Assembly (NCBI GenBank): GCA_044892525.1
Contig: CM097888.1
Location: forward strand, 47,058,001-47,122,000
Direction of reading: 5' to 3'
Origin: Schmidtea polychroa
Lineage: Eukaryota
DNA length: 64,000 nucleotides
Each line of letters opens with the position of its first letter. Positions within the stretch are counted from its first letter, which is position 1. The notes beneath the pieces were generated by a model. It made no database searches. It had not been told where the DNA came from and worked only from the letters and a program-made list of their open reading frames with translations. Made by a program: the position numbers and the translations under genes. Positions 1 through 62,467 of this stretch are shown here, piece after piece.

Positions 1-3000
1 GATGCAAGTGGATATGCAGCCGGAGCAATATTAGGACAACTCGACGAAGAAGGAAAAGAAAGAGTGATTGGATACTACAGTAGAACGTTTAAAAAGCACG
101 AGAAAAACTATTCCGTAACCGAGAGAGAAGCGTTAGCAATCATACAAGCAATTAAACACTTTCGATATTTACTATGGGGACACGAAATATGTATCACCAC
201 GGATCATCAACCATTAGTATGGCTTGGTCAACACAAAGAAGCTTCAAGTAGATTGATGCGATGGGCAATGCAGTTACAAGAATATTCACCGTTCATAAAA
301 TTCAAAGCGGGAAGAGCGAATGCCAATGCGGATTGTATGTCCAGATTTATCTTTCCAGATTTAGTAGATCACGAAATGCAACGAATATGTCTGATGGTAG
401 CAGAAGATTTAGATTTTTGCCAATTACGGAAAGACCAACAAGAGGATACAGAGTTGAAGCAAATCATTGAATATGTGAAAACAGGGAAAGCAGAGGTATA
501 TGAGAAAGATCAAAAATTGAAGGAGCATATGGATAAACATCGACATCGATATATTATCGAGAAAGATTGGTTATTGATAATGGATGGCGAGAAAAGACTG
601 ATGTGCATTCCCGAGAATAGACGTAAAGATCTACTAACACAATACCATGACGGAAGACTCGGAGGACATATGTCATCTAAAAAGACGTTGGCACGAATGA
701 AACAAAAATATTTTTGGCCTACATTGACCGAGGATGTAACGGAATGGGTGAAAAATTGCATAACTTGCGCAACCAGAAAAAACACGGGAACAAAATGGAA
801 GGCACCATTAAAGCCAATGCCAGTACCAGCAGAACCAATGACAATGATATCAATGGACGTAGTCGGTCCACTACCAGAATCAGATAGAGGAAATATATAT
901 ATATTGGTAATCACAGATTATTTGACAAAATTCCCCGAAGCATTCGCAATGGCAGATCAGAAAGCAAGAACAATCGCAAAAATATTAGTAGAGGAAATAT
1001 GTTGTCGATATGGAACGCCGAAACAAATACTGACGGATCAAGGAACGAATTTCATGAGCGAAATAATGAGCGAAGTCACCAACTACTTCAAGATCGCAAA
1101 ATTAAGAACATCACCGTACCATCCACAAACTAATGGTATGACAGAAAGATTCAATGGAACACTGATTCAAATGTTATCAAATTATGTCGATCGTCATCAA
1201 CGAGACTGGGATGAATATATAAAATTATGTCTAATGGCTTACAGAATGTCGATTCACGCGTCCACAAAGATGAGTCCGTTCAAGTTGATGTACGGCAGAG
1301 AATGCAATATGCCAATGGATTTAGAATATCAGCCACCGATATCACAATACATGGAAATAGACGATTATGTAACCAAGTTCAAGGAAAGAATGCAGGAAAT
1401 CTGGGAAACCGCAGGATTGAATATAAAATTTTATCAAGAAAGTTACAAAGAGTTACATGATAGAAAGAAAAACGTCAAACAGCATACGTTTCAAACAGGC
1501 GAATGGGTGATGATTGAAACACCAGAATTAATTCCAGGAACCACCAAAAAATTACAACGAAACGGTAAAGGGCCGTATGAGATTCTATTCGTCGGAGAAA
1601 CTAATGTAAGAGTACGATTAGTGAACAACCCTTTTACAAGACCAATATACGTAAATGTTGCACGATGTAAGCCAATTCCGAAAACCGCCACCAGTCAGCC
1701 GGAAGGACGTACACTAACGACAAGATCACAAACGTATAGAATAAACATGTTACAGCAAATAAACGAACCAACAGGTAATCGATTAGGGTTACAACCATCA
1801 GAAGCCGAGAAAATCATAAAGGAAGTAAAAGTTAAAATGCCCGGATGGGCAGAAGACAGATTAGATTTTGAGATATTGGGAGGTCTGCTAACAATGATCG
1901 AAAATTATGCAAACCGAGAAAGAACACACCCATTGCTCAGGGTAGTTAAAAGTCAATGGCCTATATTATTCACGATCACAGACCACTACGGAGACACACC
2001 CCTGCACAAGCTTTTAAAGGTGGGTAGTAACGAACAGATATTAGAAACAATTGAAGCATTTCGCGATTGTAACATTTCGACAGATCAAGAAAACAACCAA
2101 GGTTACACTCCACTAATGATAGCAGCCAATCGGGATAAAGCTAAAGATATTATCATCGCATTACTTGAAACTGGGTCAAGGATAACCACACAAGATCACA
2201 ACCAGAAAAATGCATTACATCATGCAATCGAAGGGAAAAGTACGGAAGCCTTCATAATCTTAGTAGATCTAATATCATACGAGGATAATAGAGAGATAGG
2301 AAACATGTATGACGGGCTATTAACTGCAATCAAAGAGAAATTAACAACAATTACTGGAATACTAATTGCATGGAGGAACCCGATAAAAAACGATTATATG
2401 GTAGATATAAACGAAACATTTACCAAAGGAGAAAATACCTTGATGAGAGAAGCGATGAGAGGACATCACCTATTCGAAATTCCAAATCAACTACTACAAC
2501 GAGGCATAAAATTCTCAAATCACAAAGACGAACAACTAATCAGAAAACGAATTACCAACTTCGAAAAAGCTATATCTCAATTTACCGATAAAGTACAAGT
2601 AAAATTTTGGGACACCGTGAGTGTTTTACATATGATGGAAACTATGAACAACATTCGAGAAAACTACCTAAGTATTATTCAAGTTCTAACGGCAGAGGAA
2701 CGCATTAACAGTTCGAACAAGAAAAAGATAAAAATGAAGAAAGTAAAAGCAAGAGAGTCTGAGGAACAAGTCGATCAACCAATAACCGATATAGCAACAA
2801 CAAGTAAACCAAAGATAATAAACTCCGACCAAGAGATAGTAGTACGTAAGGCTAAAGAAGTATTCTTTGAAGAAATGCAAGATCTATCCGATGAAGCGAT
2901 ACTAGCAAAAATAACCAAAACAGTACACACCTACGCAAGAGATCAGACCACAAATCTAGACATAGGAAAAATAAAAACATTTATACCACTAGCATTCACC

Positions 3001-4983
3001 TTACCAACAAAAGACTCAAGAACACCATTACAACAAGCCATTTTAGCAGCAAAAGAGAACAGAGCAATAACCATCATAAGAATCCTCAGAGACTTCGGAG
3101 AAGAATCTAATGCAAAAAACGAACAAGGGGAAACAGCAATGATGTATGCAGCCATAACAAATATACACCCGAAAACATTACATATACTACATCAATCAGG
3201 TTCGAGACTTGACGAAAGATCAAACGAAGGAAATTCTGCCATGGATTGGGCAACAATACAACCAAACTTGGAAATGATTAGATTCATTTGCAAAAATGCT
3301 ACAAGAACTGAGGTAGAAAATATCTGTAAAAACACGTCACAGTTCCAATGGAACACGATACGGATGAACTTAGAAGCCATGAAGTTGCTGCTAACATGGA
3401 GAATACCACAGAGCAATAAATATGCAATAAATATAAATGAGTTCTACGAAAACGGAGAAAATGCTATGGTTAAAAATACACTAACAAAAGGAGGAACTCC
3501 GAAAATCATAATGATCGTATTAAACAGAGAAGATCTCAAATTCACGCAGAATCTAAACGAACAAAAGCGAATCGGGAAACATCGTCGGATACAATTAAGA
3601 GAATTAGTGAAAGAATGGAATAGAAAGAGACATGTAGCAACAGGCAGAAAGGAGTTCGAACTCGAAGCAAAATTAGCAAGAAACAGAGTGCTAACGGCAT
3701 ACCGCAGATTGTTGAATGATATAAATGTCGAGGACGACATTTTAAACGATAGCGGGGGAGATAAAGACGATAAAGACGATAAAGACGACGATAATAATGA
3801 AAAAGGTCGAAACGGGAATAAAGAGAAAGAGAAATCAGAGGAGAATAATCAAGAAAATAACGACGCGAGTAGGAAAAAAGAGGAAAATAACCCGAGAAAC
3901 CGAATAAAGCAAGAAGAAAAGACGAATAGTGGAAAACAGAGGGTATGCCTACTTTTTACCAACAAAGAAATGGAGACAAATATGATGATAATGATACTCG
4001 TACTAACAATGGTGGAAATGATAACAGCCCAGGGAGGAATGAGAACGATAAAAGAAGTCAAAGAAACGGAAAATAAGGACAGCAAAGAGGAAGAACTAAA
4101 ACAAGAAAAGAAAAAACAAGTACAAGAGCAGCAATGGGATCTAAAAGAAGAATGGGATTTAAAAGAAAGGTGTATATTAGGAAGATGTATGTCTAGAGCT
4201 TATCAGAGACTAGTGTTAAAAAATGAAGATGCAGAACCAATAACGGAAGTAAGAATACAAGAAGCATACCGAAATCGAGAAGGAAAGAGAATAACGAAAG
4301 TCAAAGGGAAGGAGGTACACCTGGGAAAAGGAGGTGAGGTAGTGATAACGCAACTCCAGCCAAGAAAAGAACACAAAGTCTGCATCGCAAGATTAAGACC
4401 GGGTGAAGACTGTCTACAATATGTAATACAGCAACAACCTCCAAAAGAATACACAATATGCATCTGGAGAAAAGATACAGCGAGAGAATGTCGACGATAC
4501 CCTGGGAAAAGAGGGAAGAAAAGAAAAATCGATGATGAAAAAGATGAGCAAGGAAAACGCAAGAAAAACAGTGAGAAACATCAAGACAACTATGTATCCG
4601 AAGAGGAGATGGAGAAAATACAAAAAATGGCAAAGGAAGGTATGAACGAGGAAATAGCAAGAATACGAGGAATGATGAAAGGAAATGGCAAAGACGGTAA
4701 TCTAAAAAGCACAGAAGCAATATCAACAATAACGAGCAAGGAAAAAGCGGAAATTATAAGCATAAAACAGATGATGTGGATCAGCGGTATAATAATAACA
4801 GGGGCCTTTTTAATCATAACGGGGGGGACAATAAAAATAATCAAAGACAGACGACATCGCGGGGAATTAGAAATGACCAGAATAAGAAATTTTCAACATC
4901 GTGTAAAACGACCAAGTAATATCAAGCAGGAACAGTGGGTGGAGGCCTGGAATGCTCAGCGCCCTCCAAGCTCACGTATATAG
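1..4983 (+). CDS. pol: Pol polyprotein C-terminal part: RNase H - integrase - ankyrin modules - membrane-anchored tail (frame open from base 1)
   Basis: Frame 1 is open from 1 (DASGYAAGAILGQ...NYSVTEREALA...TDHQPL, RNase H). Integrase HHCC (YHDGRLGGH...CITC), D-D35-E (SMDVVGP, TDQGTNF, NGMTERFN) and GPY motif. Ankyrin motifs GDTPLH, GYTPLMIAA, KNALHHA, RTPLQQA, GETAMMYAA, GNSAMDWA. Hydrophobic segments at about 3982-4030 and 4771-4842. No stop until 4981. Confidence 0.95.
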   Translation, partial: DASGYAAGAILGQLDEEGKERVIGYYSRTFKKHEKNYSVTEREALAIIQAIKHFRYLLWGHEICITTDHQPLVWLGQHKEASSRLMRWAMQLQEYSPFIKFKAGRANANADCMSRFIFPDLVDHEMQRICLMVAEDLDFCQLRKDQQEDTELKQIIEYVKTGKAEVYEKDQKLKEHMDKHRHRYIIEKDWLLIMDGEKRLMCIPENRRKDLLTQYHDGRLGGHMSSKKTLARMKQKYFWPTLTEDVTEWVKNCITCATRKNTGTKWKAPLKPMPVPAEPMTMISMDVVGPLPESDRGNIYILVITDYLTKFPEAFAMADQKARTIAKILVEEICCRYGTPKQILTDQGTNFMSEIMSEVTNYFKIAKLRTSPYHPQTNGMTERFNGTLIQMLSNYVDRHQRDWDEYIKLCLMAYRMSIHASTKMSPFKLMYGRECNMPMDLEYQPPISQYMEIDDYVTKFKERMQEIWETAGLNIKFYQESYKELHDRKKNVKQHTFQTGEWVMIETPELIPGTTKKLQRNGKGPYEILFVGETNVRVRLVNNPFTRPIYVNVARCKPIPKTATSQPEGRTLTTRSQTYRINMLQQINEPTGNRLGLQPSEAEKIIKEVKVKMPGWAEDRLDFEILGGLLTMIENYANRERTHPLLRVVKSQWPILFTITDHYGDTPLHKLLKVGSNEQILETIEAFRDCNISTDQENNQGYTPLMIAANRDKAKDIIIALLETGSRITTQDHNQKNALHHAIEGKSTEAFIILVDLISYEDNREIGNMYDGLLTAIKEKLTTITGILIAWRNPIKNDYMVDINETFTKGENTLMREAMRGHHLFEIPNQLLQRGIKFSNHKDEQLIRKRITNFEKAISQFTDKVQVKFWDTVSVLHMMETMNNIRENYLSIIQVLTAEERINSSNKKKIKMKKVKARESEEQVDQPITDIATTSKPKIINSDQEIVVRKAKEVFFEEMQDLSDEAILAKITKTVHTYARDQTTNLDIGKIKTFIPLAFTLPTKDSRTPLQQAILAAKENRAITIIRILRDFGEESNAKNEQGETAMMYAAITNIHPKTLHILHQSGSRLDERSNEGNSAMDWATIQPNLEMIRFICKNATRTEVENICKNTSQFQWNTIRMNLEAMKLLLTWRIPQSNKYAININEFYENGENAMVKNTLTKGGTPKIIMIVLNREDLKFTQNLNEQKRIGKHRRIQLRELVKEWNRKRHVATGRKEFELEAKLARNRVLTAYRRLLNDINVEDDILNDSGGDKDDKDDKDDDNNEKGRNGNKEKEKSEENNQENNDASRKKEENNPRNRIKQEEKTNSGKQRVCLLFTNKEMETNMMIMILVLTMVEMITAQGGMRTIKEVKETENKDSKEEELKQEKKKQVQEQQWDLKEEWDLKERCILGRCMSRAYQRLVLKNEDAEPITEVRIQEAYRNREGKRITKVKGKEVHLGKGGEVVITQLQPRKEHKVCIARLRPGEDCLQYVIQQQPPKEYTICIWRKDTARECRRYPGKRGKKRKIDDEKDEQGKRKKNSEKHQDNYVSEEEMEKIQKMAKEGMNEEIARIRGMMKGNGKDGNLKSTEAISTITSKEKAEIISIKQMMWISGIIITGAFLIITGGTIKIIKDRRHRGELEMTRIRNFQHRVKRPSNIKQEQWVEAWNAQRPPSSRI

Positions 4984-5151
4984 AAAGGATTATGACTGTA
5001 TATAGATTGTAAAAAGTAAGTAGGAAATATTTATTTATATAACAATATTCTATATTTTTATATAAGCGCGGTATCAATAGTATATAATGATGGGGATAAT
5101 TAATATGAAAATAAAATTAGATAAGGATTGAAAAGTATATATAAATTAAGA

Positions 5152-5511
5152 ATGGAGCGAATAGGCGAGGAAGTAAACCACAGTACAACAACCGAGGAGA
5201 TGTGGAAACAACAATGTGCAATGTTAACTCAAGTGATTTCGAATTTACAGGAACAAGGACTCGCTGTACAAAGAAGCTTAGTCGAAAGTTTAAATAAAGG
5301 CTTCAATTATGTAAGAATAATCGAAGACCAACGAATGAAAATAGAACAAATGCAGCGAGAGATAGACCGAATATCACGATACAGCCAGGTGCAAGAAGAG
5401 GAGTTAATAAGAATCGCGGAAGAGATGGAGCGAGAGGAGATAGAAGACTGGTCAGAATGGTTAACCAGCAGGGAAGAGGGCGGACAAGAGGCCGACTCTT
5501 CCAGCCAATAA
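5152..5511 (+). CDS. Retroelement accessory ORF, about 119-aa coiled-coil protein of unknown function
   Basis: ATG at 5152 in an open frame with E/Q/R-rich heptad-like composition; same strand and base bias as neighbouring ORFs; AT-rich spacers on both sides. Confidence 0.7.
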   Translation: MERIGEEVNHSTTTEEMWKQQCAMLTQVISNLQEQGLAVQRSLVESLNKGFNYVRIIEDQRMKIEQMQREIDRISRYSQVQEEELIRIAEEMEREEIEDWSEWLTSREEGGQEADSSSQ

Positions 5512-5601
5512 ATATAACCTAAAATAGCAATGTAAATAAATGTAAATAAAAAACACGAAACTGTACCAGTAACGAATATATGTATATATATAATTATAGA
5601 A

Positions 5602-6990
5602 ATGGATAAGCGACAACGAGAAGAATTCAGAGAAATTGTTGAACAAATCAGAAAGTCCACCACAATTCGAATACACAACCATGTAACGTGTGGAATATGC
5701 AAGAGCTTATTAAGAGAACCTCACCAAACCAGATGTGGATGCAGAATGTGCAAAGAATGTATAGAGGAGATAATAAAGAAGGGACCACAATGGTGCCCAG
5801 TATGCAAAGAAACAATGATAACAAGTTTGGGAGATACAAACGAAGATAAAGCAGCTGTAAAAGATATGTTAAATGCAAACCTAGGATGTAAAAACACCCC
5901 ATGTAATTGGCGAGGAGTGATATGGGAAGTGAGGCAACATATGGAGCAATGTGAGTATAAAATCAGTCAATGCAAACGTTGCCAAGAAGAGATTAAAGTC
6001 AATGAAGAAGCAGAACATCAAAGTCGATGCGAAGAAAGACTGGAGAAATGCGAGTATTGCGGAGAAAACGACACCTGGAAGAAACTAATCAGTCAACATC
6101 ACAACATACAAGAGGAGAAAGTGTGCGCAGAATTCAGAGGAGAATGCCCCAACAAATGCGATAAACCCGGAGTAATAAAACTCGCTCAACATCTAAAAGA
6201 GTGTGAAAGAAAAAAGATAACGTGTGTGCTAGGAAAATGGGGATGTCAGAAACAATTACACCGAGGGGAATTACCCCAACATCTAGCAGAAAACGTATCA
6301 ACACACGCGGAAATATGGTCAACGGTATTACAGGAAAACGAAAGGAAAACCGAAAACTTAGAAAGAGAAATAGTCTCGCTAAAAGCGTTGGTAAAAGAAC
6401 TATTGGAAGAAAAGGAAGCATTTGAAGAGGCGAGAACAAGTACAAAGATACAGACAGATCTAGTAGAAACTAGCAACATTATGGTGAAAGAACTATATCA
6501 AAAAGTAAGCGAATTAAACCTCAACGAATTAATACCTACGGCTCCGTACATATGGAAAATAACGGGAGTAAAAGAGAAGATGCAGAGAGCGAGAAATGGA
6601 AAGGATACAACATTACTAAGTCCAGCATTCTACTCATGGAAAAACGGGTATAAAATGAAAATGAAAGCATACCCCAATGGGGATGGAAGTGCATACGGAA
6701 CGCATTTCTCAGTATTCTTCTTGATGTGCAAAGGGCCATACGACGAGTTAATAGAATGGCCATTCAAAGCAAAAATAGACCTCGCAATGATGAACTATCA
6801 AAGTATACACGAACAGAGTTTCCATACAGCGGGAAACCTCGTATGTTACCAAAGGCCCTTGGAAGAAGAAGGACCAGCAACCGGAGCACCAAATTTCATC
6901 CTACAGCGGAAAGTAGAAGACATGACGAGAAACGACACTATATACATAAAAATAGCGGTGAGGCGAGACGGGAAGAGTAGGACTGAGTAG
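5602..6990 (+). CDS. TRAF: Full-length intronless TRAF-family protein (RING, TRAF zinc fingers, coiled coil, TRAF-C/MATH), 462 aa
   Basis: RING CGIC...P..TRCGCRMCKEC...CPVC; repeated C-x-C/H TRAF fingers; coiled coil ENERKTENLEREIVSLKALV; MATH hallmarks YIWKI, SPAFYS..GYKM..KAYPNGDG...GTHFSVFF..KGPYDELIEWPF. Paralog (TRAF2/3/5-like) cannot be resolved by eye. Confidence 0.95.
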   Translation: MDKRQREEFREIVEQIRKSTTIRIHNHVTCGICKSLLREPHQTRCGCRMCKECIEEIIKKGPQWCPVCKETMITSLGDTNEDKAAVKDMLNANLGCKNTPCNWRGVIWEVRQHMEQCEYKISQCKRCQEEIKVNEEAEHQSRCEERLEKCEYCGENDTWKKLISQHHNIQEEKVCAEFRGECPNKCDKPGVIKLAQHLKECERKKITCVLGKWGCQKQLHRGELPQHLAENVSTHAEIWSTVLQENERKTENLEREIVSLKALVKELLEEKEAFEEARTSTKIQTDLVETSNIMVKELYQKVSELNLNELIPTAPYIWKITGVKEKMQRARNGKDTTLLSPAFYSWKNGYKMKMKAYPNGDGSAYGTHFSVFFLMCKGPYDELIEWPFKAKIDLAMMNYQSIHEQSFHTAGNLVCYQRPLEEEGPATGAPNFILQRKVEDMTRNDTIYIKIAVRRDGKSRTE

Positions 6991-7209
6991 AGAGACGAAT
7001 AATTTTGTATATACTAATTGTAAATATCGGCGTATATATCCAGTAAAATATTATATAGTAGTGTAGAAAATTCCCCCCAAATCTACCAAAGGTAAACTTA
7101 AGCGGAAAACTCCTAAAACAACTCCTATAACGAATTATAAAAATAAATAAATAATAAACCAGATATAAGCGTACAACGTTGAGTTAATGATATCGTTATT
7201 TAGACAAAG

Positions 7210-8031
7210 ATGACACAAAAAGGAACTGAAGCCCCAAACCACGAAACCAAAGTCAATAAAATCCATAAGGGAAAATGGGTCAAAGTAATGTTACAATTGA
7301 CGAACCAGACCCACAACCATCTCGAAGAGGCCAGGGAATACGAGAATAACAAATATCAGTGGTTAGTAAACAATTTAAGAGCCGAAGCAGAAGCATGCAA
7401 AAGAGCCTCTAAGTGGGCATCATTGGAAAACACTCGCCAAGAAGCGCACAGCCACTATTTAAAACAGTTAGTGCAGGAAGCACGGAAACGATTGACGGAC
7501 GAAAACACAAAACGAGAAGCAGAAAAACAAAAGGAAGGAAGGAAAATGAATCACCTATTGGCAGAAGCCCGAAACTGGAAGCGGCAGAACAAAGAGATGA
7601 AAAAAGAAATGAAAGAATTGCCTATGAGATTAGAATACGAAAGCGAACAAGGCAAATGGGAGGAAAATCTGGTCATAAGAGAAGAACTGAAACGGCTCAG
7701 AAAGATTGCGGCCCGAAGCCAAACATGGCAGACCAAAGCCATGGAATTTGAAAGACATCTAGCCATGAAAATCTCCATAAGGGAGCACGAGAATGCCGCA
7801 ATGGAAGAACTGATACTTCAACAGTCAGGACGACTCGTGGAACTGGTGAATAAGGTCGCAGAACTAGAACGAGATGTCAACGGATACCAAGGAGCTCTGG
7901 AGCAGAGAAATATGGTACTGGCGGGGAAAAACAAAAAGTTAGAAAACGAAAGGAAAATGTATAACGAAAATCTTAAAAATCTGGAGATAGAGATCAAGAA
8001 ATGGGAAAACGGCGAAAAGCGGAAGAGCTAG
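7210..8031 (+). CDS. Retroelement accessory ORF, 273-aa coiled-coil protein (possibly continues into 8001-8246 across a frameshift)
   Basis: Long open frame with E/K/R/L heptad composition; preceded by ttttag|acaaagATG. Confidence 0.75.
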   Translation: MTQKGTEAPNHETKVNKIHKGKWVKVMLQLTNQTHNHLEEAREYENNKYQWLVNNLRAEAEACKRASKWASLENTRQEAHSHYLKQLVQEARKRLTDENTKREAEKQKEGRKMNHLLAEARNWKRQNKEMKKEMKELPMRLEYESEQGKWEENLVIREELKRLRKIAARSQTWQTKAMEFERHLAMKISIREHENAAMEELILQQSGRLVELVNKVAELERDVNGYQGALEQRNMVLAGKNKKLENERKMYNENLKNLEIEIKKWENGEKRKS

Positions 8032-8246
8032 AAAAACAGATAGAGGTAAGAGACGATGAAACCAGGTATCTAACATACCTGTTGGACGAGGAACTTAACG
8101 TGTCAAGAGCACTAAGAGACGAAGTGCAAGAACTTAGAGCGCAGATTCCCCGGTACTACATCCCATTTGATCCCATCGCACTCCAATTACAAACGTCAGT
8201 AGAAAGCGATGAGGGATATGTAGGCCAGGAAGAGACCTTTGTATAA
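8001..8246 (+). CDS. Short overlapping ORF, likely the frameshifted C-terminus of the 7210 ORF
   Basis: Overlaps the previous ORF by 31 nt in another frame and continues the coiled-coil pattern (AEELEKQIEVRDDETRYL); no spacer or acceptor in front of it. Confidence 0.5.
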   Translation: MGKRRKAEELEKQIEVRDDETRYLTYLLDEELNVSRALRDEVQELRAQIPRYYIPFDPIALQLQTSVESDEGYVGQEETFV

Positions 8247-8421
8247 AGATAAAAGGAAAGATAAAAAATATAAAAATCGGGACCTGTATCCCAACCAAAA
8301 AAAATTAATGGTACAGTAAAAGTATGAAAGGGACTGTAACCCTGATTATAAAATAACATATAAATGTATAAGTATAAGCCGCACTGTAGCGCAATTATTA
8401 ATTATGTATATATTATAGAAA

Positions 8422-9123
8422 ATGAACACTGAAAACGGACAACCCAGCATAACATCTATAATTGAGTTAGAAGAGGGAGAAATTGAAGTTGATGAAGTGG
8501 AGAGGAAGAAAACTATCAAGGAAGAATTACAAGAAGAGAGACAGGAAAACGAAAGATTAGTTGAAAGATGGAGAGATAATCGAAAAATGATTAAAGTATT
8601 GAAAAGAGAATATATCTTGTTAGAAGGAGTAAAGAAAGAAGTAGAGGAGGAAAACGAATGGCTTCACGAGCAAAGAAAGCGAGGGAGAAATTGGGAAAAG
8701 ATCGCGGAAGAATTATGGCAGGAGAGGGCCAGTCGAAAGGCCGACGAAGTGATTAGTGACTATTGGAAAACCGAGGCACGGAAACACCAGGAAAGCCTGA
8801 AAGAGTTACAACTCCAACTACACCAAAAACAGAAAGAATGTGAGATAATGAGACGAATGAACAACAAATACCAGGAAATAGACAACGAAGAGGACGGGGA
8901 AAGGGAAAATGATTTTCTACAGATAATGAACCATAGAAACCTCGAAAGAGCAACACAAGAAATAAAAGCACTAAAAGGAAAAATAATAACCCTAAGGCAA
9001 CAGTTAGACGAAAGAGACAAACAATTAAAAGTACTACCCGAATTGAGAAAACGAGTAATAAAAGCAGAAACGAGAGTGATGAGAACATCCGAGAAAACCC
9101 GTAAAAAGAAAACCCGGCAATAA
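8422..9123 (+). CDS. Retroelement accessory ORF, 233-aa coiled-coil protein with basic C-terminus
   Basis: Open frame, highly charged heptad composition, ends KTRKKKTRQ; preceded by ttatag|aaaATG. Confidence 0.75.
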   Translation: MNTENGQPSITSIIELEEGEIEVDEVERKKTIKEELQEERQENERLVERWRDNRKMIKVLKREYILLEGVKKEVEEENEWLHEQRKRGRNWEKIAEELWQERASRKADEVISDYWKTEARKHQESLKELQLQLHQKQKECEIMRRMNNKYQEIDNEEDGERENDFLQIMNHRNLERATQEIKALKGKIITLRQQLDERDKQLKVLPELRKRVIKAETRVMRTSEKTRKKKTRQ

Positions 9124-9178
9124 TTAAAGATGAATGATCAATGTAAATAATTGTAAATAAAAATTTTCGTATAGTAGT

Positions 9179-9805
9179 ATGTGGTTCGGAGCAACCTTGG
9201 TGACAATAATGATGATAGCGATAAACGGGATACCCATGTGGCAACCAATCCCAACACTCTGGGAGAATCCCGAGAAACAGCAAAACTCGTTAACCAAACT
9301 AAAAAGCGCAAGAAAGCTCTGCAACAACATCCCGAAACAATGCTGGAACAAAGCCGTCTGGCAAAAACTTCAAATGCAACTCCACCTACAAACCCAAAAA
9401 ATCGAACAGCTCGAAACTCTCTTACAAGAACAAACCACCCAACAATCCTTGAAGGAAATCATCATGAAGAAGGAAGTAAAAGAAAGCCAAGTCTTACTCT
9501 ATACTACCATCAGTGAAACCCTTATCATCTGCGCACTAGTCATCTGGAAAGCGTATGATATTCATCGAACATGGAGAAGAAACCAGTCACTATCCGAAAA
9601 ACACGAAAGAAAGAACCCACGATCGAAAAATAAATATAAACGAGCAGTACATTTTCAACAACCAAACCCACCCGACCAAATGCAACAAAATCTATCTCCT
9701 GACCAAATGCCTGTTACAATCCAGCTCCCCACGATAACAACTTCAACCAGCCATCCGACCCAGAATTCAACTAACCAAGACATTCCGAACCTTGAGATCA
9801 TGTGA
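9179..9805 (+). CDS. Retroelement accessory ORF, 208-aa predicted membrane protein (N-terminal signal/TM, coiled coil, second TM, P/Q/T-rich tail)
   Basis: Hydrophobic MWFGATLVTIMMIAING; heptad LQMQLHLQTQKIEQLETLLQE; hydrophobic VLLYTTISETLIICALVIW followed by basic residues. Confidence 0.7.
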   Translation: MWFGATLVTIMMIAINGIPMWQPIPTLWENPEKQQNSLTKLKSARKLCNNIPKQCWNKAVWQKLQMQLHLQTQKIEQLETLLQEQTTQQSLKEIIMKKEVKESQVLLYTTISETLIICALVIWKAYDIHRTWRRNQSLSEKHERKNPRSKNKYKRAVHFQQPNPPDQMQQNLSPDQMPVTIQLPTITTSTSHPTQNSTNQDIPNLEIM

Positions 9806-10530
9806 CATCGACCATTCATAAACTTTGTGTGTATAAATCCGGTCACCTAAAGTGGCCACTGCTTGCTTATATTTGTCCTTTTATCTGTTTAATTAAAGTA
9901 TTATTTAGTTATTTTAATTTTATGTTTGTGTGAATGTTGACCGTGAAATTAGTTGTTATGCCGAAAAAAGGTATGAGTTAAACGTATGATATTATATGAA
10001 TTGCGGGGCGCAATTTTAACGGGCCCCGGAGTGATTTGTTGGGCTAAAATGCGGAGTGGAGAAAACTGGAGCGAATAGAAAATAAACCTCGAAAGATAAA
10101 TGAAATAAGATAAAAATATCAAGTACCATAAAAATCTCACTAGTAAATAGGAAGGAACAATAAAATAACAATAAAAGAATAAGAATAAGTAAACAAACTA
10201 AATAAAATCCAATAAACCCCTTAAGATTTAGAAATAAAACGGGTTAAGGTACACAGCGGATAAAATAGAAATAGAATAAGTAAAAAAGTAAAAACAAATA
10301 AACGAGGAATTTAAGAAAATAAATAAAAATAAAACCATCTTAAGTCTAATTAAAACAAAAAATGATATTGCAATAAAATAACAATAAGTCCACAGGAAAA
10401 ATAGGAGAAAAATAAGAAAAATAAATAAAATAATAATAAGAGATAAGTCAGGTCATTAAAAATTTAAAATACGATGATAAAAACATAAAAATAATAATAA
10501 ATAGTAAAAATACAAGCAGGTAGCGTCCTG

Positions 10531-10580
10531 ATTGGACGAAAAATACTATATATGTAACGTGAAAAATTAGACGACAACCA
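10531..10580 (+). promoter_or_regulatory. LTR core promoter: CCAAT box (ATTGG), TATA box, predicted initiator
   Basis: ATTGG 10531-10535, TATATAT 10547-10553, Inr-like CCACTTT about 33 nt downstream; same layout in the solo LTR. Confidence 0.65.
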
Positions 10581-12930
10581 CTTTTAATTTTTCACGATTA
10601 CAGGTAAAATTTTAGAAAAGAACTTAGAACCACTTTTAATTTTTCACGATTACAGAGCATAGACTTCAGATATTTCACCGAATTCAGGACTAGAATCGCA
10701 AACGCCAATTCCAGAGATTTTCAGAATTTAACTTTAATTTAGTCGAGACCATTTTAAATTCGATTTCGTTCCAGTTTTTGAAACTACCGGTAGGCCGATT
10801 GATTTATATGTATTAGTAATTTATTAATGATGAAAAACAAAACTCATTTCGTAAAATAAATTTATTGAAATACAAATGGCCTTTTCTTCATGGTGCCGGC
10901 GACTGTACCATCTGAGAACTCCCAGTATGATGTGGATGAGTTGGAAATGTACCACGGTAGAGAACACAACAGTGGGAAGGTTGACCTTCATAAGAAATCC
11001 CGAAGATGCTGAAAATGAGAATGTGATATTTGCAGAGAAGGATATTTATCATACGAGAAATCCACCAAGGGTATGATGAGGCTGCGGTTGTGTGGAATGA
11101 ATAGCATCATACTTGGAGTCCAAATGATAGGGTCGCCGGGTGAGCTTTATTGATTCATTTATTTTCATTGATTTATTTATTTTTTGATTCATTTACTGCT
11201 ATTCGAGTCATTCATTCCTTTTATTATTCATAAATTGTATATTAAATGTTGATTTTGTGAAAGACGAGTCAAACGGTCCCTCACGACGATGCAAGAACGG
11301 CGGCAGAGATGATTGCCTTCTTGGGTGGGTCATGAGGGGTGAGGAGACTCCGCAGGTGGAATACTGTTGGAAGTGGAATTTCTCACATCGAGCGCGATCT
11401 GATAGAGGATCTTTCGTTTTCTTTTATGAAGTCACGCTGAAGTTTCAGAATAAATAATGCAAATTTCCAAAGTCGGAGACAATTTTTCGGATTGAGATCA
11501 GTAGTTCGTTGTTGTTAGGAAAATTTGCTTTTCCATCGAATATTGATAGATGTCTGAGTAGGGATGGGCGATGAATTGTTAGAGTTTTCACTGGAAGATC
11601 TGCTAAGCACTTAAAAATTGAACCCCGAGAGGTACATTGCAGGGACATTAGCGAGTAAACCCATTCATTGACTAATTTAGACTTTAGCTTGACATTGAAT
11701 ATCTGATAAAGTTTGGTTTGACGTTGACAGCGGCTCGTCTAAAATGGGAAAGTAAACAAATTTTTTGATAAGGAAATAAATCACTTGCCGTGAGTCCGAG
11801 TGAAGATATCAATAGCGATAGGAGAATCATTAGTTGCCCATGGCCAGATAAATTTCCGACGGGGAAAATCGGCTGATAATTTGATAAAGTCATCGAACGA
11901 GTTGATTGAGAAGGCGGCAGTCGATCGAGTGTATTGAGTGGTCTTATCGTGAGTCGACCTAATATCGAAAATCCAGAATATAGAGTAATTTTTATCTACT
12001 GAATCCGCAAGTCACCCACACAATCGAATTTCTTGAGTTTTGGACACACCAACTGAGTACCCGTCTCAACTAGAGCATCTCTCTACAACTCTACCTCTAT
12101 TAATCGCTCGCCCACATGTACACATGCATCACACTCAGATTAGGTCACAGTGCACATGTGGATATCATCATTACCTAATCATAGGGAGAGAGTCGTACAC
12201 TTGAAACTGCTGGTAGACCACTGGATTGCGTCAGAGAACATGGCGATGCGACGAGAAATTTTTTTTTTGTCAGTGTGCAAGTCGCTAGTTAAATGCACCA
12301 ACATGCATCGTGACGAACCCGTCGATAGTTGATGGCATAGATAGACAATCAAATGAACACATAACTGCGCCCAATTTAAGCGTCACTATGACGATGTTTA
12401 TGGCGTTAAATTGAAATAACTAAGTTATGAGCCATGATAAAAATTTAAGCGAGAGTATTATGATTTTCTTACAAACCCGAGGGGCCTACATACAAGACGG
12501 GGTGTCCCGGTAATTGCCGACTTTCCGTTCATCATACAGCACGCGTAGAATTTGATGACGTAGCAGCAAAATGAGTAAAATATAATGGTTAAAATGTAAC
12601 AACGATAATTAAGATAATAGCATTCATAGTAACGAATTAACAGTCATGCAGTAGTTAAAAATAGCCAAACCCATAAAGTAAACCTAAAAGCTAGCATAAT
12701 GAAGTGTCTTCATGAATCCCGTTTTCTTCTCATAAAGTAGTAATGATTTCATGGGTTAGTTTAGATGTTTGAGGTTGCATGAAGGTGAATGTTTGTCGAC
12801 GGGGTAGATTGGTAGGCCACTCTTTGATAACTTGGTCGGGGAGATTCTTAAACTTCATTTTTCCGAAAACATGAATAATGCCCCAGTGAATTTTTTTTAA
12901 TCTAACAATAAAAATTTCTTAACAATTCAG

Positions 12931-13695
12931 ATGAATACCTCAACCAGTTCCGGGAAAACCCTCAGACCTTGCTTTTCCTGTGCTGATAAAAATGCCGATA
13001 TCGCACAGCTCCACTTGTACATAGGGGAATTGAAGAAGAGAATTGACCTCTATGAGGGAACGTGGTTCTCCCCACCACAAATGAAGGAGGAGAAGAGCAA
13101 GATTCTGCGTCTGGAGCACTGCCGTGACAGTCTCCTGGAAGAAAGCAGGTGCCAGAGGTTAACCATAAAGGCCCAATCAGAGGCACTGCACAAGGTGTAT
13201 TCCGAATCAGAACTAGCGAAGCGAGTTCGCGAGTACCCGATACAAGATGGGACTAACGTGTTCCCAATGCACCACAAATTAGCTGAAACCTCATCAATAT
13301 CCAGTTGTAAAGGGCATGGCCCACAAATGCCGCCAATTCCCGCCCCAGTCCTTTCGGGCGATCGACCTATGGCTGGCGGTTCATCGGACCCTATCTTGGC
13401 TCCAGTACTCGTGCCACACCTCCTTCAGTCCCCAGCAGAAGCTACACTTCCCCATCGAAAGCGTAAGCGGCTGACGCGTTCTGAAAAAAATCAGAAGCGT
13501 AGAAATGCCATGGCCGCGCTCGAAGCATCGTTGTCCGCAGCCCAATCGACTATCAAGGAAATTACAGTTACCCATTCCATTCCTACAAAGGAAGTATTCC
13601 GGGTAGTTCCGGCCGACAGTATCAAATTCCTCGAGGATCGCCGGTTGCCCGTTGATATCGACGAGATGCTCGCAGAAGGAGAAGCATTCTCGTAG
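12931..13695 (+). CDS. LTR-encoded 254-aa protein (CxxC, coiled coil, Pro-rich linker, basic NLS-like patch, acidic C-terminus)
   Basis: Intact in both LTR copies; 95 of the first 103 aa identical while most differences are synonymous; ttcag directly before the ATG and a CTAAC branch-like motif at 12902. Confidence 0.85.
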   Translation: MNTSTSSGKTLRPCFSCADKNADIAQLHLYIGELKKRIDLYEGTWFSPPQMKEEKSKILRLEHCRDSLLEESRCQRLTIKAQSEALHKVYSESELAKRVREYPIQDGTNVFPMHHKLAETSSISSCKGHGPQMPPIPAPVLSGDRPMAGGSSDPILAPVLVPHLLQSPAEATLPHRKRKRLTRSEKNQKRRNAMAALEASLSAAQSTIKEITVTHSIPTKEVFRVVPADSIKFLEDRRLPVDIDEMLAEGEAFS

Positions 13696-14575
13696 CAAAT
13701 TCTCTCTCGGGTCTCGATTCCCTGCTATTACGAACGAACTTGAAGAAGCGACGTTATCTCGTGACTAATCTTTAATGTTTTGCATTTACTTAAACAATGC
13801 TGAATGTAATTTGATGTTCCGTTCTAATATAACTGTTCGATTTTCTTTGATTGTGTTAATTGTATGTATGATTTGCTACGGTTGAATTGCATGAGAGAAG
13901 GATCACGAAAATATAGTAGAAACTCAAATGTCGTACCTTTGGACCAGGGTCGGACCGAATGATGCGTAAAGAATGGGTAAGACCTTCTAAGGCACCGTAG
14001 AACCCGAACCGAGAAAGGGTTAGGAGTAGTCCTAAGGCAGGGGCTCACCTGCTAACTCTTTCCAACCCGTGTGAGCAGCACCAACGTGGAAACACCACCA
14101 CGGGCTCATACGTGGGAATATGCGAATGATCATTTGGAGTGTGTGAGGGAATGGTCTGAGCAGAATGATGATACCTGATGTGTATGATAATCATACCTAT
14201 ATATTTTCTTTTCCCCCCACATACGCCAACAAATAATTTGTTGCATAATATATATAAAACAATTTTTTATTATTTAATTTTTATATATTCTTAGTAATAT
14301 CTCTATGAAAATTTTTTCTTAATAATAATTTTAATTAATAAATTTTCTATTTCAGTTTTATTAATCATTAACTTTTCCTAGACGTTTTCCTGGCACTTTG
14401 GTAAAAATATTAGTTAAAATTATTCGATGAAAATACTGATTTTCAATATTAATGAAATTTGAAAGATCAAAATTTTAAAAAATAACTGAAATAAATAGAA
14501 AAACATCTACAAAAATTCAAACTTTATTATCGGTTTAATGTTTTGTTTAACACAATCAATATAATATCTCGATCA

Positions 14576-15175
14576 ATGTTGAAAATAGGATTATTCAAAG
14601 TTTTAAGTAAAATTTGCTCCAATCAATCAAGTAATTAGTGATTTTAAACTTTCTAAATTGATTTTTTTAATTATGAAGCAAAAATAACAATTTTGAGATG
14701 TATGAGCAGTGATCACCATCATTATAACTATCTTGAGTTCGAACCTGAAACAGTACGTAAAATAACATTACGAGTGAGTGATGCAGTGGCTCCTAAACCA
14801 ATTGGTAAAAACCATAAATTTTACACCTATCTCCGTGGTTTTGGAGCTTTATTTGTTTCACTTATTTTCTTTGGTACCACAGGAATGATTTGGATCGAAA
14901 ACTATGGTTTATGTTACGAAATTTTCCATGATCAGAAATATGAAAATTCTGAAAAGGGCCTCGAATTTTATGAGGTTGGTAAAAATTATTTTCATAAGGA
15001 AAGTGATGAACGGGCAGCGGAAATTATGGCTGAAAGAAGAAAAAATTATAGGGAAACTAAAATTATTCCAGGCGTTCAATTGGGAAAAAGTTTAGAAGGT
15101 GATTGGCCAATTCAAGAGTACGAAAACACTGATGAAGCAATATGTTGGATAGATCGCAAATTGGCGGGAAAATAG
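14576..15175 (+). CDS. Host two-exon gene (14576-14630, 14679-15175), 183 aa, probable mitochondrial single-pass membrane protein; family unassigned
   Basis: A 48-nt GT-AG intron joins the frames: MLKIGLFKVLSKICSNQSTKITILRCMSSDHHH (basic, acid-free presequence with an R-C-M-S-S cleavage-like motif); one TM segment GFGALFVSLIFFGTTGMIWI. Confidence 0.7.
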
Positions 15176-25507: not shown

Positions 25508-28500
25508 ATTTATCTATTTTATAAAATATATTAATTATATAAATCAATTAAATTTTTTTGTATTGCAAAATAATTCGATTTTTGCATAAAAATATAAATA
25601 ATTTCAAATAACTTTTTTTTAAATTTCAAATATTTAAAATGGCATTTCATGACTTATATTGCTAGATTTGTCCGACAGTTTATGACTAATCAATGGTAAT
25701 CTTATATTTTCAGTTATATTATCAGTTCCTACATACGCTATTTGGTTAGCTAGGCAAAATGCTCATAATGTGAGGTGCTTTTGATAGGATACGTCGAAAT
25801 CCCATTTTAAGTCTTGTATCATAAAGAGCATTATGTAGATATTCTCTTCTTCATAGGAATTATTTGACAAGTCACATATCATGAATTTCGTCAATTATAG
25901 AATTTCAATTTTATTGAAAAATAAATTAAGTCAGATTTTGGAACAAGTTTCGGATTTTGAAAATTTACATTAAAGAAACTAAAGTTACATTACATTTCGT
26001 TTTGCAATTTTTCCTTTTTATTTCAATTCGAGCATTAATATTATTAAGTTAGTTAAAATTTCATTAACCCTTTCAATGCCGGTGACGTTCTATACTTTTT
26101 TATGAAAATTTAAATACAACATAATTTAAACAAAAATCTATTTTTTTATATTTCATTTATTTTCATTATGACAAAGGATTTTAGGTCTTTTTTCATACGG
26201 GTTGAAAAGATCAAGTTATTAAACAAGAAAATAAAAGTAGAGAAGTGTAAATATTATAATTATATTCTATAAATATTATAAATTTGTCTACTTTTAATAA
26301 AATTCTAGTTACAACAGAAAATCTTTAAAAAACCAATCAGTTGTTACGATTCCAAAGATGAATGGAATTATAAATAATATTCAAAGTACCTGCATAATTC
26401 CTAAATTAACTACTGCCAAGTTATTAATGAGTCTCAGTCCAGAAATGGTAATTCTTCCAGCCAGCTGCTGAAGGGCTGAAAAAAATGTAAATAATGATCA
26501 TCCAAATAATGATGTAGGGTGGTGTAAAAAATATTATACATTTCCTTGACAGTTGAGATTATAGTTTCAATGAACATATACTCACATAGTCAGATTATTT
26601 AGGGAGTAGACGCGTAAAATAAAATTTTTTAAGCTCGAATTTTCAAATAACTTATTTCATGGCCTCTGAATCTGGGATGTGCAACAAGAGTAAAAATATT
26701 TCTCTATATATAAAAAAGCTAGGGGTCCCCTCCATCCGAATTTTACTTTTTAATTTTTTTTAAATTTTTTTTTGTCAAATAAATAAAATAATTTTTTATT
26801 AGTTTGGCTGTTTTGACGCAAGTCGTGTTAGATATTTAACGGGTTTACGTCTAATCCATACCTGAACATCATTAACCCCACGTTCTAACGGGGTTGGTGA
26901 AGCGAAGCGAACGGGGCAGAGCCCCTAGTATATATAAAAATGATAGATAAAGAAAATTAATATTTAATTATATTTAAAGTTTGAAGAAATTTTAGTTGAA
27001 GGTTGTTACGATTCATTATGATTACACCCATCATCATCACATGAAAAGATAGGATAGAAATGAAGCTGAAAACGATCACATTGACTGACTAGATGGATTT
27101 AATGGAATTCAAAATGAAAGAGCATAATTCAACAGATCTATAAATACCGTATTTATTTTCTTATAACACACAGGCTTTAATATTATCGTTCAATACTTTT
27201 TTAATTTTTAAAAACACTCAACTTTTAAACCCAACATGGTGGGTAAGAAGAATGCAACTGGGCGCATTTCTACAAAAGGATTCCACACAGTAGAAGTAAA
27301 ACATATGAGAACTGCATATACGATACAATTTAAAAAGAATGTGTTGGATTTCTATGATGTAAATGGTGCGTCACAGACAGTTACCAAATTTTGGCCTGAT
27401 CTAAAGTCATCATCGCCAGCTCGTGAAGCCAAAAGACAGTTAATATATCAATGGAGAAAAAATAAAGACCGAATAACAAAACTTGGGAATATGAATAGGG
27501 TCAAGAAATTGAAAAAGATCCGACCACTAGGAACTTCCTCGAGTCTTTCATCTGAAGTCGAAGACGAACTTATTTTCTGGGTCCGAACCCTGCGCCAAAA
27601 TGGTGTCCCCGTAACCGACAGTATACTTCGTACTAAAGCTCGCCTATCGTGCAGACAAACCGATGTTAATAATTTCTTAGCAAGCACTGGGTGGCTAAAA
27701 ACCTTTAAGAAAAAATATGGCTTGTCACTCAGAGCCAAATCTCATCAAGGACAAACATCCATAGTCCTTCCAAATCCGGTAGCCACTCAGTTTGCATTAG
27801 ATGTCCGACAAAAAATGATTGAATTAAATGTAGATTGTGTTTGGAATGCCGACCAAACGGCTGTTAATTATGAAACAATCCCCGGAAAAACCTTAGATAA
27901 AATAGGTTCCAAGACAATATTCATACGAACAGCTGGGAAAGAAAAAGAGAGGATATCAGTATTATTGCTGGGATCTTCTAATGGACAGAAAAAACCACCT
28001 TTTGTAATATTTAACCCTTTCGCACCGACTTTCCGCTAATGACACTATGCTAAATTTATATATTGGAACTTGTTAATATTGACCTAAATATATTCTCATT
28101 TTTGTAATCGTGGCGATTCTGAATATCCTAGAAAGTCCTGGGATAATAAGTCCCAATAGGCTTTTATGGACCATTCAAAATATCCCAGTAGGATCATGAT
28201 GAAAGTTTCTGGGACGTATTGTCTTAATAGGGGCGAAAGGGTTAAGGGTAAACAATCAGTTGTGGAGGCATCATCGTTGCAGAATAGAATTAATCAACAT
28301 GGATTTCGTAGTTGTGTCTGGAAAAAAATACAGGAGATCAATAAAACCAGCACGACTCAAATATATTGCAACCAAAATGGCTGGTTTACAAGCGATATGA
28401 TGGTTATCTGGCTTTATCATAATTTTTCCGAAAATGTGGAGAAGCCAAAGATTTTATTATTGGATGACTTTACAGCACACTGGACAAGCGATGTTTTAGC

Positions 28501-55252: not shown

Positions 55253-55352
55253 ATGAATAACAAGTTTTAAATTTTTCACATAAACTGCCAACTCCAATTA
55301 TTAAAACAAACAGATATTTAAATCTCCCCTTCTTAAGATTTTTTCCACTTCT

Positions 55353-56150
55353 TCAGCCACTCGATTCTTCTTTCATTCGTTTCTTGTTGTGAATGTAGTT
55401 CGACTCGATGAGGCGATAGAAATCTGACGATTTTATATGGGCTATTGTATTGCTTACCATCCTTGTGCCTGTTCTGTGGCTCTTTACATACGAGTACCTC
55501 TTAATCCACTTTGAAAACACGAGGTCCCTCTTTGTCTTATCCATAGCTCTCATAGTGTCTGCGACTTTACTCGAGTTAAATCTCGCGTTTTCGGTTCTTT
55601 CGCTTCTTGATATCTCGGCTTGTTTCAGGTTAGAGTGTATGTTAACACTTCGTCCATAAATTATCTCAAATGGTGATAAACCTGTAGCACTTTTTCGACT
55701 GCTATTTATAGTGAACTCTATTCTTGGTAGAAGTTCATGCCAGTTTCTCTCTTCAAATCGACCTACCAATGCTGCTGTAATAAGATCTCTTATCGTTCGT
55801 ATGGCTCGTTCGGCTAAACCATTTGATTGGTGCTGGTAAGGTGAGCTGAATTACTGTTTGATTCCAAGTTTCTGTACTTCTGTTTTAGGAAATTCCCTTC
55901 GAAATTTCGGCCTCTATCTGTTAAAATGCTCTTCGGTTTTCCAAATCGATAGATCCAACTATTAAGTATTGTTTTGAAAATTGTCCCTTAGTCTTGCTTT
56001 GTGATTTCAGTTAAAGATATCAGTTTGCTAAAACGGTACACCATTACTACCATATATTTTTATGGCGTTTATTTTCATGTAAGCCACATCTATAACAATC
56101 TGTTCTAGGAATTTAGAGCTATATCTTAGGAATAAATGTTTTCTTGGTTC
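55353..56150 (-). pseudogene. Integrase core of the small Gypsy element (frameshifted), downstream of the solo LTR
   Basis: FLEQIVIDVAYM, LTDRGRNFE, SSPYQHQSNGLAERAIRTIRD, LPRIEFTINS...TGLSPFEIIYG. Confidence 0.88.
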
Positions 56151-56672
56151 TGTTGGCGTATGTGGGGAAGAGAAAGATATGCACGTGTAACCTTCACACA
56201 TACAAGGCGTCATCGTTCCACTCAGGCACTCCCCCTACATACCCCAGATGATCAAATGCATATTCCCACGTATGAGCCCGTGGTGATGTTCCACGTTGGT
56301 GCTGCTCACACGGGTCGGAAAAGGTTAGCAGGTGAGCCCCTGCCTTAAGACTACTCCTAACCCTGTCTCGGTTCGGGTTCCATGGCGCCGTAGAAGGTCT
56401 TACCCGTTCCTCTGCACATCATTCGGTCCTTCCCTGGTCCAAGGGGACGACCCTGTATTGCTACCTAAATCCGATATCGTCCTATTGTTCACTTTTAATC
56501 CCATATCATGCATACCAGAAACAATCACCGAGAGACAATTAAAATTATATTACACCCACAACAATAACTACATTTATAATAAGAAAAGTGACTGTCACAA
56601 AATAAATGTTCAATATTCACAAATACTCAGGTCCGCTTTCGAATCTTGCAGAATCAAGGCAGTGGAAATCGG

Positions 56673-59799: not shown

Positions 59800-59853
59800 A
59801 GAATGATACTCTACAGATTTTTGTCGCTCTTTATATATTATTTTCTGTCCAAT
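59800..59853 (-). promoter_or_regulatory. Solo-LTR core promoter (CCAAT box, TATATAAAG, Inr-like TCATTC)
   Basis: ATTGG 59853-59849, TATA 59837-59829, TCATTC about 31 nt downstream on the minus strand. Confidence 0.7.
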
Positions 59854-60851: not shown

Positions 60852-60855
60852 TGTA

Positions 60856-62420: not shown

Positions 62421-62467
62421 TAGCGACTTTGTCGATTTCGAAATGGCGTTGTTGTTTTGATTTTCGG

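Follow-up and report, generated by a model that had tools for sequence, protein, structure and literature searches.

The presence of an open reading frame (ORF) inside the LTR of a retrotransposon raises the question of whether it is a real gene, what its product might do, and whether it is kept by selection on the replicating elements or also on the solo LTRs that they leave behind. Within the window analyzed here, a stretch of 64,000 nucleotides of Schmidtea polychroa DNA, this ORF was found twice: inside LTR1 (12931..13695, plus strand, 254 aa) and, in a version of 253 aa with 73% identity, in a solo LTR (57434-56673, minus strand). The original prediction, made from the sequence, described a protein-coding gene under strong purifying selection that was retained intact in the solo LTR. 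Its codon counts proved to be exact, since the first 45 aligned codons comprised 18 identical codons, 24 with synonymous changes only and 3 with amino acid changes. A recount also agreed that 95 of the first 103 residues are identical between the copies, that YAG stands directly before the ATG in both of them and that the middle of the LTRs barely aligns (38–56% identity, and 58–77% in the ORF). The U3 (window 10037-10550) was 79–90% identical despite saturated synonymous sites, which could reflect either a strong constraint or a frequent exchange of U3 between subfamilies.

LTR1 (10037..14231, plus strand, 4195 bp, ends TGTTGG...CCAACA) is the 3′ LTR of a full-length element of 30,513 bp, with LTRs of 4194 and 4195 bp and the TSD AATA. 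Its 5′ LTR was located at G000:C4:47041719-47045912 of the genome searched (781 Mb, four large contigs) and carries the same ORF with one codon changed. A primer-binding site, presumably resembling that of tRNA-Pro, lies directly after the 5′ LTR, and hence the LTR ORF is in the sense orientation of the element. The internal order is a RING ORF, one frame of approximately 4,600 codons, a TRAF-like ORF and three more ORFs; the end of the polyprotein (integrase and ankyrin repeats), the TRAF-like RING-MATH ORF and the three further ORFs occupy positions 256..9805 (plus strand) of the window. The giant frame, whose reading as one frame was pieced together across separately read stretches, contains Gag, CCHC knuckles, a mononegavirus-type fusion glycoprotein, protease, RT, RNase H, integrase and ankyrin repeats. 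The corresponding Pfam domains in the single frame were Retrotrans_gag, zf-CCHC, Monjiviricetes_fusion (E 3e-72), RVP, RVT_1, RNase H, rve and Ank, the Env-type fusion glycoprotein lying in frame between Gag and protease. The cargo thus comprised TRAF, ankyrin and RING, and no Pfam match to BIR or BCL2 was obtained in the element at the thresholds used. From this content, the host was inferred to be a Burro/GYPSM1-type giant gypsy element; Burro/GYPSM1 elements are giant gypsy elements of planarians, described in Schmidtea mediterranea (PMC6431247, as excerpted).

The second LTR (LTR2; 60345-56151, minus strand, 4195 bp, ends TGTTGG...CCAACA) belongs to another subfamily and sits in an unrelated gypsy element. 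It is a solo LTR, flanked on both sides by the target duplication GTTC (56147-56150 and 60346-60349), and its flanks do not match the internal ends of the element. The recipient (window 55300-62600, minus strand) is a degraded small gypsy with a Gag carrying zinc knuckles and integrase fragments.

Several other features were recorded in the course of this annotation. Between the polyprotein and the 3′ LTR (window 5602-9805), four ORFs encode one complete TRAF-like protein (RING, zinc fingers and MATH), two coiled-coil proteins without a Pfam family and one 208-aa protein with hydrophobic segments, and a 159-aa RING-finger ORF lies between the primer-binding site and gag (L031:6390-6869). Just outside the 3′ LTR, a 157-aa ORF with a hydrophobic segment (window 14702-15175) matched no Pfam family, and neither did a 479-aa minus-strand ORF (window 44526-45965), which is probably a large exon of a host gene. 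Window 27144-28972 is occupied by a DNA transposon that has terminal inverted repeats and encodes a transposase of the Tc5/pogo type (HTH_Tnp_Tc5). Elsewhere in the genome, whole elements form tandem arrays that share LTRs, with three or four evenly spaced (G000:C1:72646419-72699963, C1:145063312-145163763 and C2:37305925-37361518), and loci L111 and L112 have six identical flanking bases on each side.

The coding nature of the ORF was examined between lineages. Over the whole ORF, the two copies in the window gave a saturated pS of 0.83 and a pN of 0.16, and the differences at the three codon positions were 64/28/156 over 254 codons. Ten intact representatives of the subfamilies (45 pairs, mean pS 0.71, mean pN 0.13) yielded a median dN/dS of 0.068 in the 23 pairs that were unsaturated. 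This larger sample, which had been proposed as a check on the selection claim, gave a value far from 1. The constraint differed along the protein: dN/dS was 0.016 over residues 12–103, rose to 0.17 in the linker (32 pairs) and stood at 0.07 in the C-terminal part (13 pairs). A frame without coding function, arising incidentally from RNA structure or from another frame that overlaps it, has little in its favor beyond the lack of homologs; the codon pattern, with saturated synonymous sites beside conserved residues, and the 1 to 21 stops present in each of the five other frames in 15/15 copies led to its rejection, and its probability is practically nil. The LTR ORF is a real gene under strong purifying selection between lineages.

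The number and integrity of the copies were then considered. The protein searches of the genome provided 149 and 150 scored matches, from around 7,000 first-look candidates each. LTRs were then collected with a 19-base LTR-end pattern, chosen so as not to favor intact frames. This pattern gave 82 matches, 81 of which were examined (three pairs among them being local duplicates), and the ORF was intact in 55/81. The frame was intact in 23 of the 34 solo LTRs confirmed by their TSD, counting locus L095, flagged by the script, as intact with a start one codon later, and broken in the other 11. It was also intact in 18/25 LTRs of full-length elements and in 14/22 unclassified LTRs. The change F15L was rejected as damage private to the solo LTR of the window, because 12 of 56 intact copies carry it. 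Locus L063 looks recombinant, with the promoter region and N-terminus of one subfamily and the C-terminal half of another.

Furthermore, a 26-base U5 pattern had 486 matches in the genome. Among 40 of these loci, hand-picked from the first 100 listed, 15 had one open frame of at least 225 profile positions, 24 were broken and one had no match. This set includes families that are only 34–37% identical to the query and share the same layout, and a TSD-flanked LTR of 3.1–4.0 kb could be delimited in 9 of 25 divergent loci. Since families so distant still carry the gene within TSD-flanked LTRs, its location inside the LTR is ancient.

To date the action of selection, the 5′ and 3′ LTRs of individual elements were compared; these are identical at insertion, so their differences post-date it. 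Fifty LTR pairs were used, ten of them taken from the protein match lists, and 48 yielded codons (11,739 in all). The differences consisted of 34 amino acid changes, 3 stops and 14 synonymous changes, plus 3 frameshifts. The amino-acid-changing fraction (37/51) was thus close to the neutral expectation of 72.8% non-synonymous changes, with an omega of 0.99 (CI 0.52–1.98), although assembly errors would also look neutral in this test. The 40 pattern-picked pairs alone gave 0.85 (0.37–2.12). Speaking against such errors, many LTR pairs did not show any difference in 3 kb, and the changes clustered in a few older pairs.

These data bear on the possibility that solo LTRs serve the host as genes and are preserved by selection once inserted. 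The high proportion of intact TSD-confirmed solos would suit such maintenance, and so would the omega of 0.39 for changes private to solos, which was 0.57 (CI 0.26–1.27) in the eight solos with a close relative, an interval that fits the neutral and the selected readings alike. Nevertheless, solo LTRs have no partner, so their private changes mix in unsampled replicating history, and the terminal branches of full-length elements gave a similar omega of 0.50 (Fisher p 0.29); the purely post-insertion changes were neutral. In the core, changes private to solos amounted to 37 synonymous versus 23 damaging, compared with 56 versus 1 for changes shared between elements. The LTRs of full-length elements were intact in the same share as the solos, so solos break about as often as paired LTRs. 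Maintenance of solo LTRs by the host is therefore very improbable, and the idea, drawn from the original prediction, that they are kept as genes is not supported and is largely refuted as a general rule. Neutrality between the two LTRs of an element, together with the low dN/dS between subfamilies, indicated that it is the replicating elements, and not the solo LTRs, on which selection maintains the gene, which decays after insertion. The solo copy of the window is, most simply, intact because it is young.

The anatomy of the LTR indicates how such a gene could be expressed. The U3 is predicted to extend from 10037 to ~10575 (plus strand) and includes a predicted core promoter (10530..10554, plus strand) with a reverse CCAAT box at 10531 and a TATA box at 10547; this promoter motif was found in 75 of 123 stretches examined. 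The predicted exon 1 (10576..10603, plus strand), which has no ATG, is the first copy of a direct repeat of 24–30 nt, and the second copy forms the 3′ end of a predicted 52-nt intron (10604..10655, plus strand). The exact repeat was located 27–32 nt past the TATA motif in 61 of the 75 promoter-bearing copies. In 61/61, the first copy is followed by GT, and both copies end in ACAG, 44–52 nt apart; one repeat copy had been lost in 8 of the other 14. The repeat is identical within an element and different between subfamilies, and its counterpart in the solo LTR, with a GT-AG intron, is found at window 59690-59810, the intron length being 44–52 nt. The simplest reading would be that the repeat corresponds to exon 1 and a mini-intron in R. 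In every round of reverse transcription, the end of this intron would be written anew from the spliced 5′ end, which would fix the start site indirectly.

A poly(A) signal (pA1; AATAAA followed by a U-rich tract, 10855..10860, plus strand) marks the predicted R/U5 boundary and is in register in 17/17 representatives, so that R probably ends near 10880 and the ORF would lie in a U5 of 3.3 kb. The gene is accordingly predicted to be in U5, downstream of a conserved poly(A) signal and 2.35 kb downstream of the predicted start, all of these boundaries being predicted from sequence. A predicted splice acceptor (12905..12930, plus strand) stands directly before the ATG, in the form YAG|ATG in 54 and AG|AATG in 13 of the 68 copies beginning with ATG; these two phases imply that the ATG, rather than an upstream coding exon, starts the protein. 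Downstream of the ORF, a non-canonical poly(A)-like hexamer (pA2; 13826..13831, plus strand) appears as AATATA, AATACA or AATAAA in register in 15/17. The expectation that promoter, leader and ORF all lie within the LTR was borne out, as candidates for all parts of the transcription unit were present there.

Two RNA structures precede the gene. The first is a long stem (10896..11139, plus strand) followed by a GT at 11140, for which 478 of 525 cells were paired, with slid controls at 31–50%, and both-side changes occurred in 12 of 32 pairs; the pairs were taken from the fold of one member, and the z values of the tool were only −2.1 and −2.3. The second is a hairpin (11272..11350, plus strand) with both-side changes in 12/26 pairs among 19 sequences and a donor-like GT at 11339, conserved in 17/17 representatives; a fast-evolving stretch of 1.5 kb separates it from the acceptor. 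A further structured RNA at the end of U5 (14015..14110, plus strand) showed both-side changes in 15/25 pairs of 26 sequences, its central 26-mer being invariant by construction because it was used for picking the loci. This structure is common to all the LTR families seen (loci L143-L180), with many compensatory changes, and contains GGGGCTCA, which is also present in the primer-binding site. The region 10890-11140 was also considered as a second coding exon, on both strands, and this was rejected, since the frames are not maintained between subfamilies and base pairing explains the conservation. A search of Rfam over the LTR was blank.

The donor that serves the ORF was assigned from the leaders that each candidate would produce. 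There are 56 ATGs between the start site and the ORF; splicing from 11140 would leave 16 of them in a leader of 510 nt, splicing from 11339 would leave 20, and splicing from exon 1 none. The original prediction had pointed to a shared donor CGG|GT at 11140 and 59230. The motif does exist at both positions, but it is in register in only 12/17 representatives, and its use for the ORF is probably wrong in view of the long leader with its upstream ATGs and because the CCGG at this site is the base of the covarying hairpin. Exon 1 was inferred as the donor instead, since splicing from it leaves no upstream ATG and also removes pA1. Direct splicing from exon 1 to the ORF is thus the likelier route, and the 11140 and 11339 donors may, by analogy with foamy viruses, serve poly(A) suppression. 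The contigs of four runs, of an uncertain kind that is unable to show transcription or splicing, contained no listed GT-AG joint at the predicted sites. Pattern searches for processed genomic copies in which exon 1 lies next to the ORF start yielded a single match, judged to be due to chance, in a divergent and decayed copy; the corresponding searches for the 11140 donor yielded nothing, and 13 shortened LTRs did not present any deletion matching donor and acceptor.

Regarding the product, the protein features noted in the original prediction, among them a CxxC, a basic patch and an acidic-hydrophobic tail, are all in the sequence and would fit a nuclear regulator. The layout consists of the CxxC (14–17), a predicted coiled coil (15–101), a disordered linker, a basic helix (176–207) and the acidic-hydrophobic tail (231–254). 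C14 and C17 are kept in all full-length members, and the invariant residues form a cluster at 51–88, plus F111, H114, H115 and K177. The same architecture, including the basic helix and the acidic tail, was found in families around 35% identical; the helix begins with a conserved S/T-R-x-E cap and is Arg-rich in divergent families. The last 26 residues contain 6–10 D/E and 3–7 W/F/Y/L in 17/17 full-tail sequences (of 19). This tail may resemble acidic activators such as VP16, more so in the divergent subfamilies than in the present one.

AlphaFold predicted helices at 15–43 and 48–101 (both confident), 183–207 and 243–248 (short), with a mean pLDDT of 62.5 and a pTM of 0.34. When two chains of residues 8–118 were modeled with zinc, a parallel in-register dimer from 14 to 93 was predicted, with a homodimer score of 0.61 versus 0.33 for the best control, at least 96% of contacts in agreement between runs and a pLDDT of at least 80. 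The mark used for this score is passed by 21/30 solved pairs and 0/23 single chains (17/29 in eukaryotes and only 1/7 without solved relatives), and the present job is unlike the calibration set. The modeling thus supports a putative dimerization.

No homolog was found by phmmer and profile search among 5.8 billion proteins at near lengths, in PDB sequences and Pfam, in viral and metagenome contigs or in the ESM Atlas (best 0.84, lead level only). A profile search of 1.84 billion representatives, with a shallow alignment, gave one repeat protein (E 7e-4), judged to be a chance match, and the fold comparison suggested with the original prediction, run by Foldseek against viral and PDB folds, yielded nothing at E 0.001. 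The protein therefore appears to have no homolog outside this genome in the libraries searched, which hold few flatworm sequences. Neither sequence nor fold searches revealed a recognizable DNA-binding fold. The basic region of bZIP proteins has the spacing N-x7-R/K-x9-L and is joined to a zipper. An identity as bZIP was rejected, since that spacing is absent, the zipper after the basic helix is short and not kept in divergent families, and there was no Pfam match.

Taken together, a protein that is predicted to be dimeric, basic and probably nuclear, with an acidic tail, encoded directly under the promoter and needed only by replicating elements, is probably a regulator of the element's own RNA output. 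The main reading, to which a probability of roughly 40% was assigned, is that the ORF is a conserved accessory gene of the Burro-type LTR whose product would be a nuclear dimeric transcriptional activator of its own LTR promoter, made from a short spliced message. Activation was ranked first because the tail is nearer to acidic activation domains, such as that of foamy-virus Tas, than to export signals. Transcription would start at ~10576, and the exon-1 donor at 10604 would have two alternative acceptors. Use of the near acceptor (10655) would give the full-length RNA; the remainder of the leader has to stay in this RNA, as progeny LTRs would otherwise lose it. Use of the far acceptor (12930) would join an ATG-free leader of 26–28 nt to the ORF, skipping pA1 and both hairpins, and this message could end at the weak pA2. 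The protein would then dimerize through residues 14–93 and enter the nucleus, where the basic helix may bind nucleic acid and the acidic-aromatic tail may recruit co-activators, with positive feedback like that of foamy-virus Tas or HIV Tat. Young solo LTRs, which keep the whole unit, could supply the protein in trans until they decay.

A different mode of regulation, of Rev/Rex type, is possible but unlikely; in it, the basic helix would bind a leader hairpin of the intron-retaining RNA and promote its export, its escape from splicing or read-through of pA1 and pA2, thus switching the output from short to full-length RNA. This is the nearest competitor of the activator reading because the full-length RNA must keep the long intron (2.3 kb) with its two conserved hairpins, and it must also pass two poly(A) signals. 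Both of these covarying hairpins lie within the part that would be spliced out of the ORF message, and the S/T-R-x-E cap and the arginines of the basic helix would also suit RNA binding of this kind. Against it, the tail is acidic-aromatic and not Leu-rich, and by eye it fits the usual export-signal spacings poorly, requiring Ala at the final position. The hairpins could just as well be signals for packaging or dimerization that Gag reads.

A non-regulatory accessory role, either as a coiled-coil adaptor in particle transport or nuclear entry or as a modulator of host apoptosis or ubiquitin pathways like the other cargo of the element, was judged improbable. The element does carry RING, TRAF, ankyrin and several coiled-coil ORFs, and the best-conserved part of the protein is a long coiled coil; however, a gene located immediately below the LTR promoter and provided with an acceptor and a poly(A) signal of its own would be expected to give an early product, and families with 35% identity still retain the basic helix and the acidic tail. 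Rather improbable, too, is a silencing antagonist, the second function named in the original prediction, which would act against piRNA/SMEDWI-2-dependent chromatin repression of the element. Burro is repressed by SMEDWI-2 according to the excerpted text of PMC8532177, and a protein that looks nuclear, with a short conserved hydrophobic tail, could be suited to binding a host factor. Nevertheless, its core is almost invariant, with the dN/dS of 0.016 given above, which is unusual for an arms-race interface, and no likeness to known anti-silencing proteins was detected in Pfam, PDB or the viral fold library.

Complex retroviruses are marked by their regulatory accessory proteins, and such proteins have been little characterized in gypsy elements. 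A gene in U5 would imply a strong-stop DNA of 3.6 kb and a duplication of the gene at every replication. Judging from the LTR's content, solo LTRs may not be inert remnants but, for a while, complete expression cassettes. In its widest form, offered tentatively and unlikely as a whole, the proposal is that Burro elements are complex retrovirus-like elements with a master regulator in U5, in which the 5′ LTR would make an early Tat/Rev-type protein by alternative splicing and hundreds of young solo LTRs would supply this regulator in trans and help to set tissue-specific bursts of expression. The gene represents a new protein family, with no homolog in the libraries searched, and it makes it possible to test directly how this repeat family, among the largest in an animal used as a model of regeneration, activates itself.

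HIV Nef and MMTV Sag are encoded in U3 and read from the 3′ LTR, and the foamy-virus Bel region lies in U3 or runs into it. The gene described here resembles Nef and Sag in that its coding sequence is duplicated with the LTR. Unlike them, it follows the predicted poly(A) site, and the copy that is read would be the one in the 5′ LTR, ahead of the primer-binding site, so that the analogy with Nef, Sag and Bel drawn in the original prediction was probably wrong in detail for an ORF in the predicted U5. HIV Rev and Tat, HTLV Rex and MMTV Rem combine a basic helix, an oligomerization region and a structured RNA in the unspliced leader. Candidates for these features, namely an Arg-rich helix, a predicted dimerization region and a structured RNA in the unspliced leader, were observed here, as were a conserved basic cluster and a conserved acidic-aromatic tail that might correspond to the nuclear signal and the activation tail of transactivators. 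In contrast to those proteins, the present one would be encoded in U5 and has no homology to them and no clear export signal; searches of Pfam, PDB sequences and viral or PDB folds did not reveal homology to viral transactivators of the Tas, Tat or Tax kind. Tat and Rev are also named in the available passages of PMC7264820.

Foamy-virus Tas has 300 aa and carries an acidic activation domain at its C-terminus (PMC8339588, in part), and in foamy viruses a donor located upstream of the poly(A) signal within the LTR suppresses 5′ polyadenylation via U1 (PMC3694450, in part). The protein described here is of similar size and also has a C-terminal acidic tail, and its LTR likewise has a putative donor upstream of a poly(A) signal. 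It differs in that no likeness to Tas was found in sequence or fold; according to the passages available, Tas depends for its expression on an internal promoter, located at the 3′ end of the viral genome, and its DNA-binding domain is central. The additional ORFs of plant LTR retrotransposons, such as gene23 of Grande, are internal, most of them lying between pol and the 3′ LTR and many in antisense orientation, and none is described inside an LTR in the excerpted text of PMC7264820. Gene23 is nevertheless similar in being a family-wide conserved ORF without homologs, and it is nuclear and has been proposed to be regulatory (PMC7264820, as excerpted).

The literature on LTR-encoded and additional ORFs, Burro and planarians gave no account of a gene in U5 or in a Burro LTR; Grohme et al. 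(2018) and the GYPSM1 entry of Jurka, which were outside its scope, may annotate one. The closest relative by description is Burro/GYPSM1, which shares with the present element a length of more than 30 kb, one polyprotein of ~4,600 codons that includes Gag, three CCHC knuckles, the in-frame fusion glycoprotein, protease, RT, RNase H, integrase and ankyrin repeats, and the TRAF and RING cargo (PMC6431247, as excerpted). It differs in that MATH-TRAF is here a separate ORF after the polyprotein and not inside it, and the available text of the same source names no LTR ORF. With respect to Burro1, the polyprotein length and the TRAF position differ, the two elements having been compared by description only (PMC6431247, excerpted account). 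The element is thus of a known kind, and accessory ORFs are known in the internal regions of gypsy elements (PMC7264820, in the part available); the gene in its LTR is unusual and uncharacterized.
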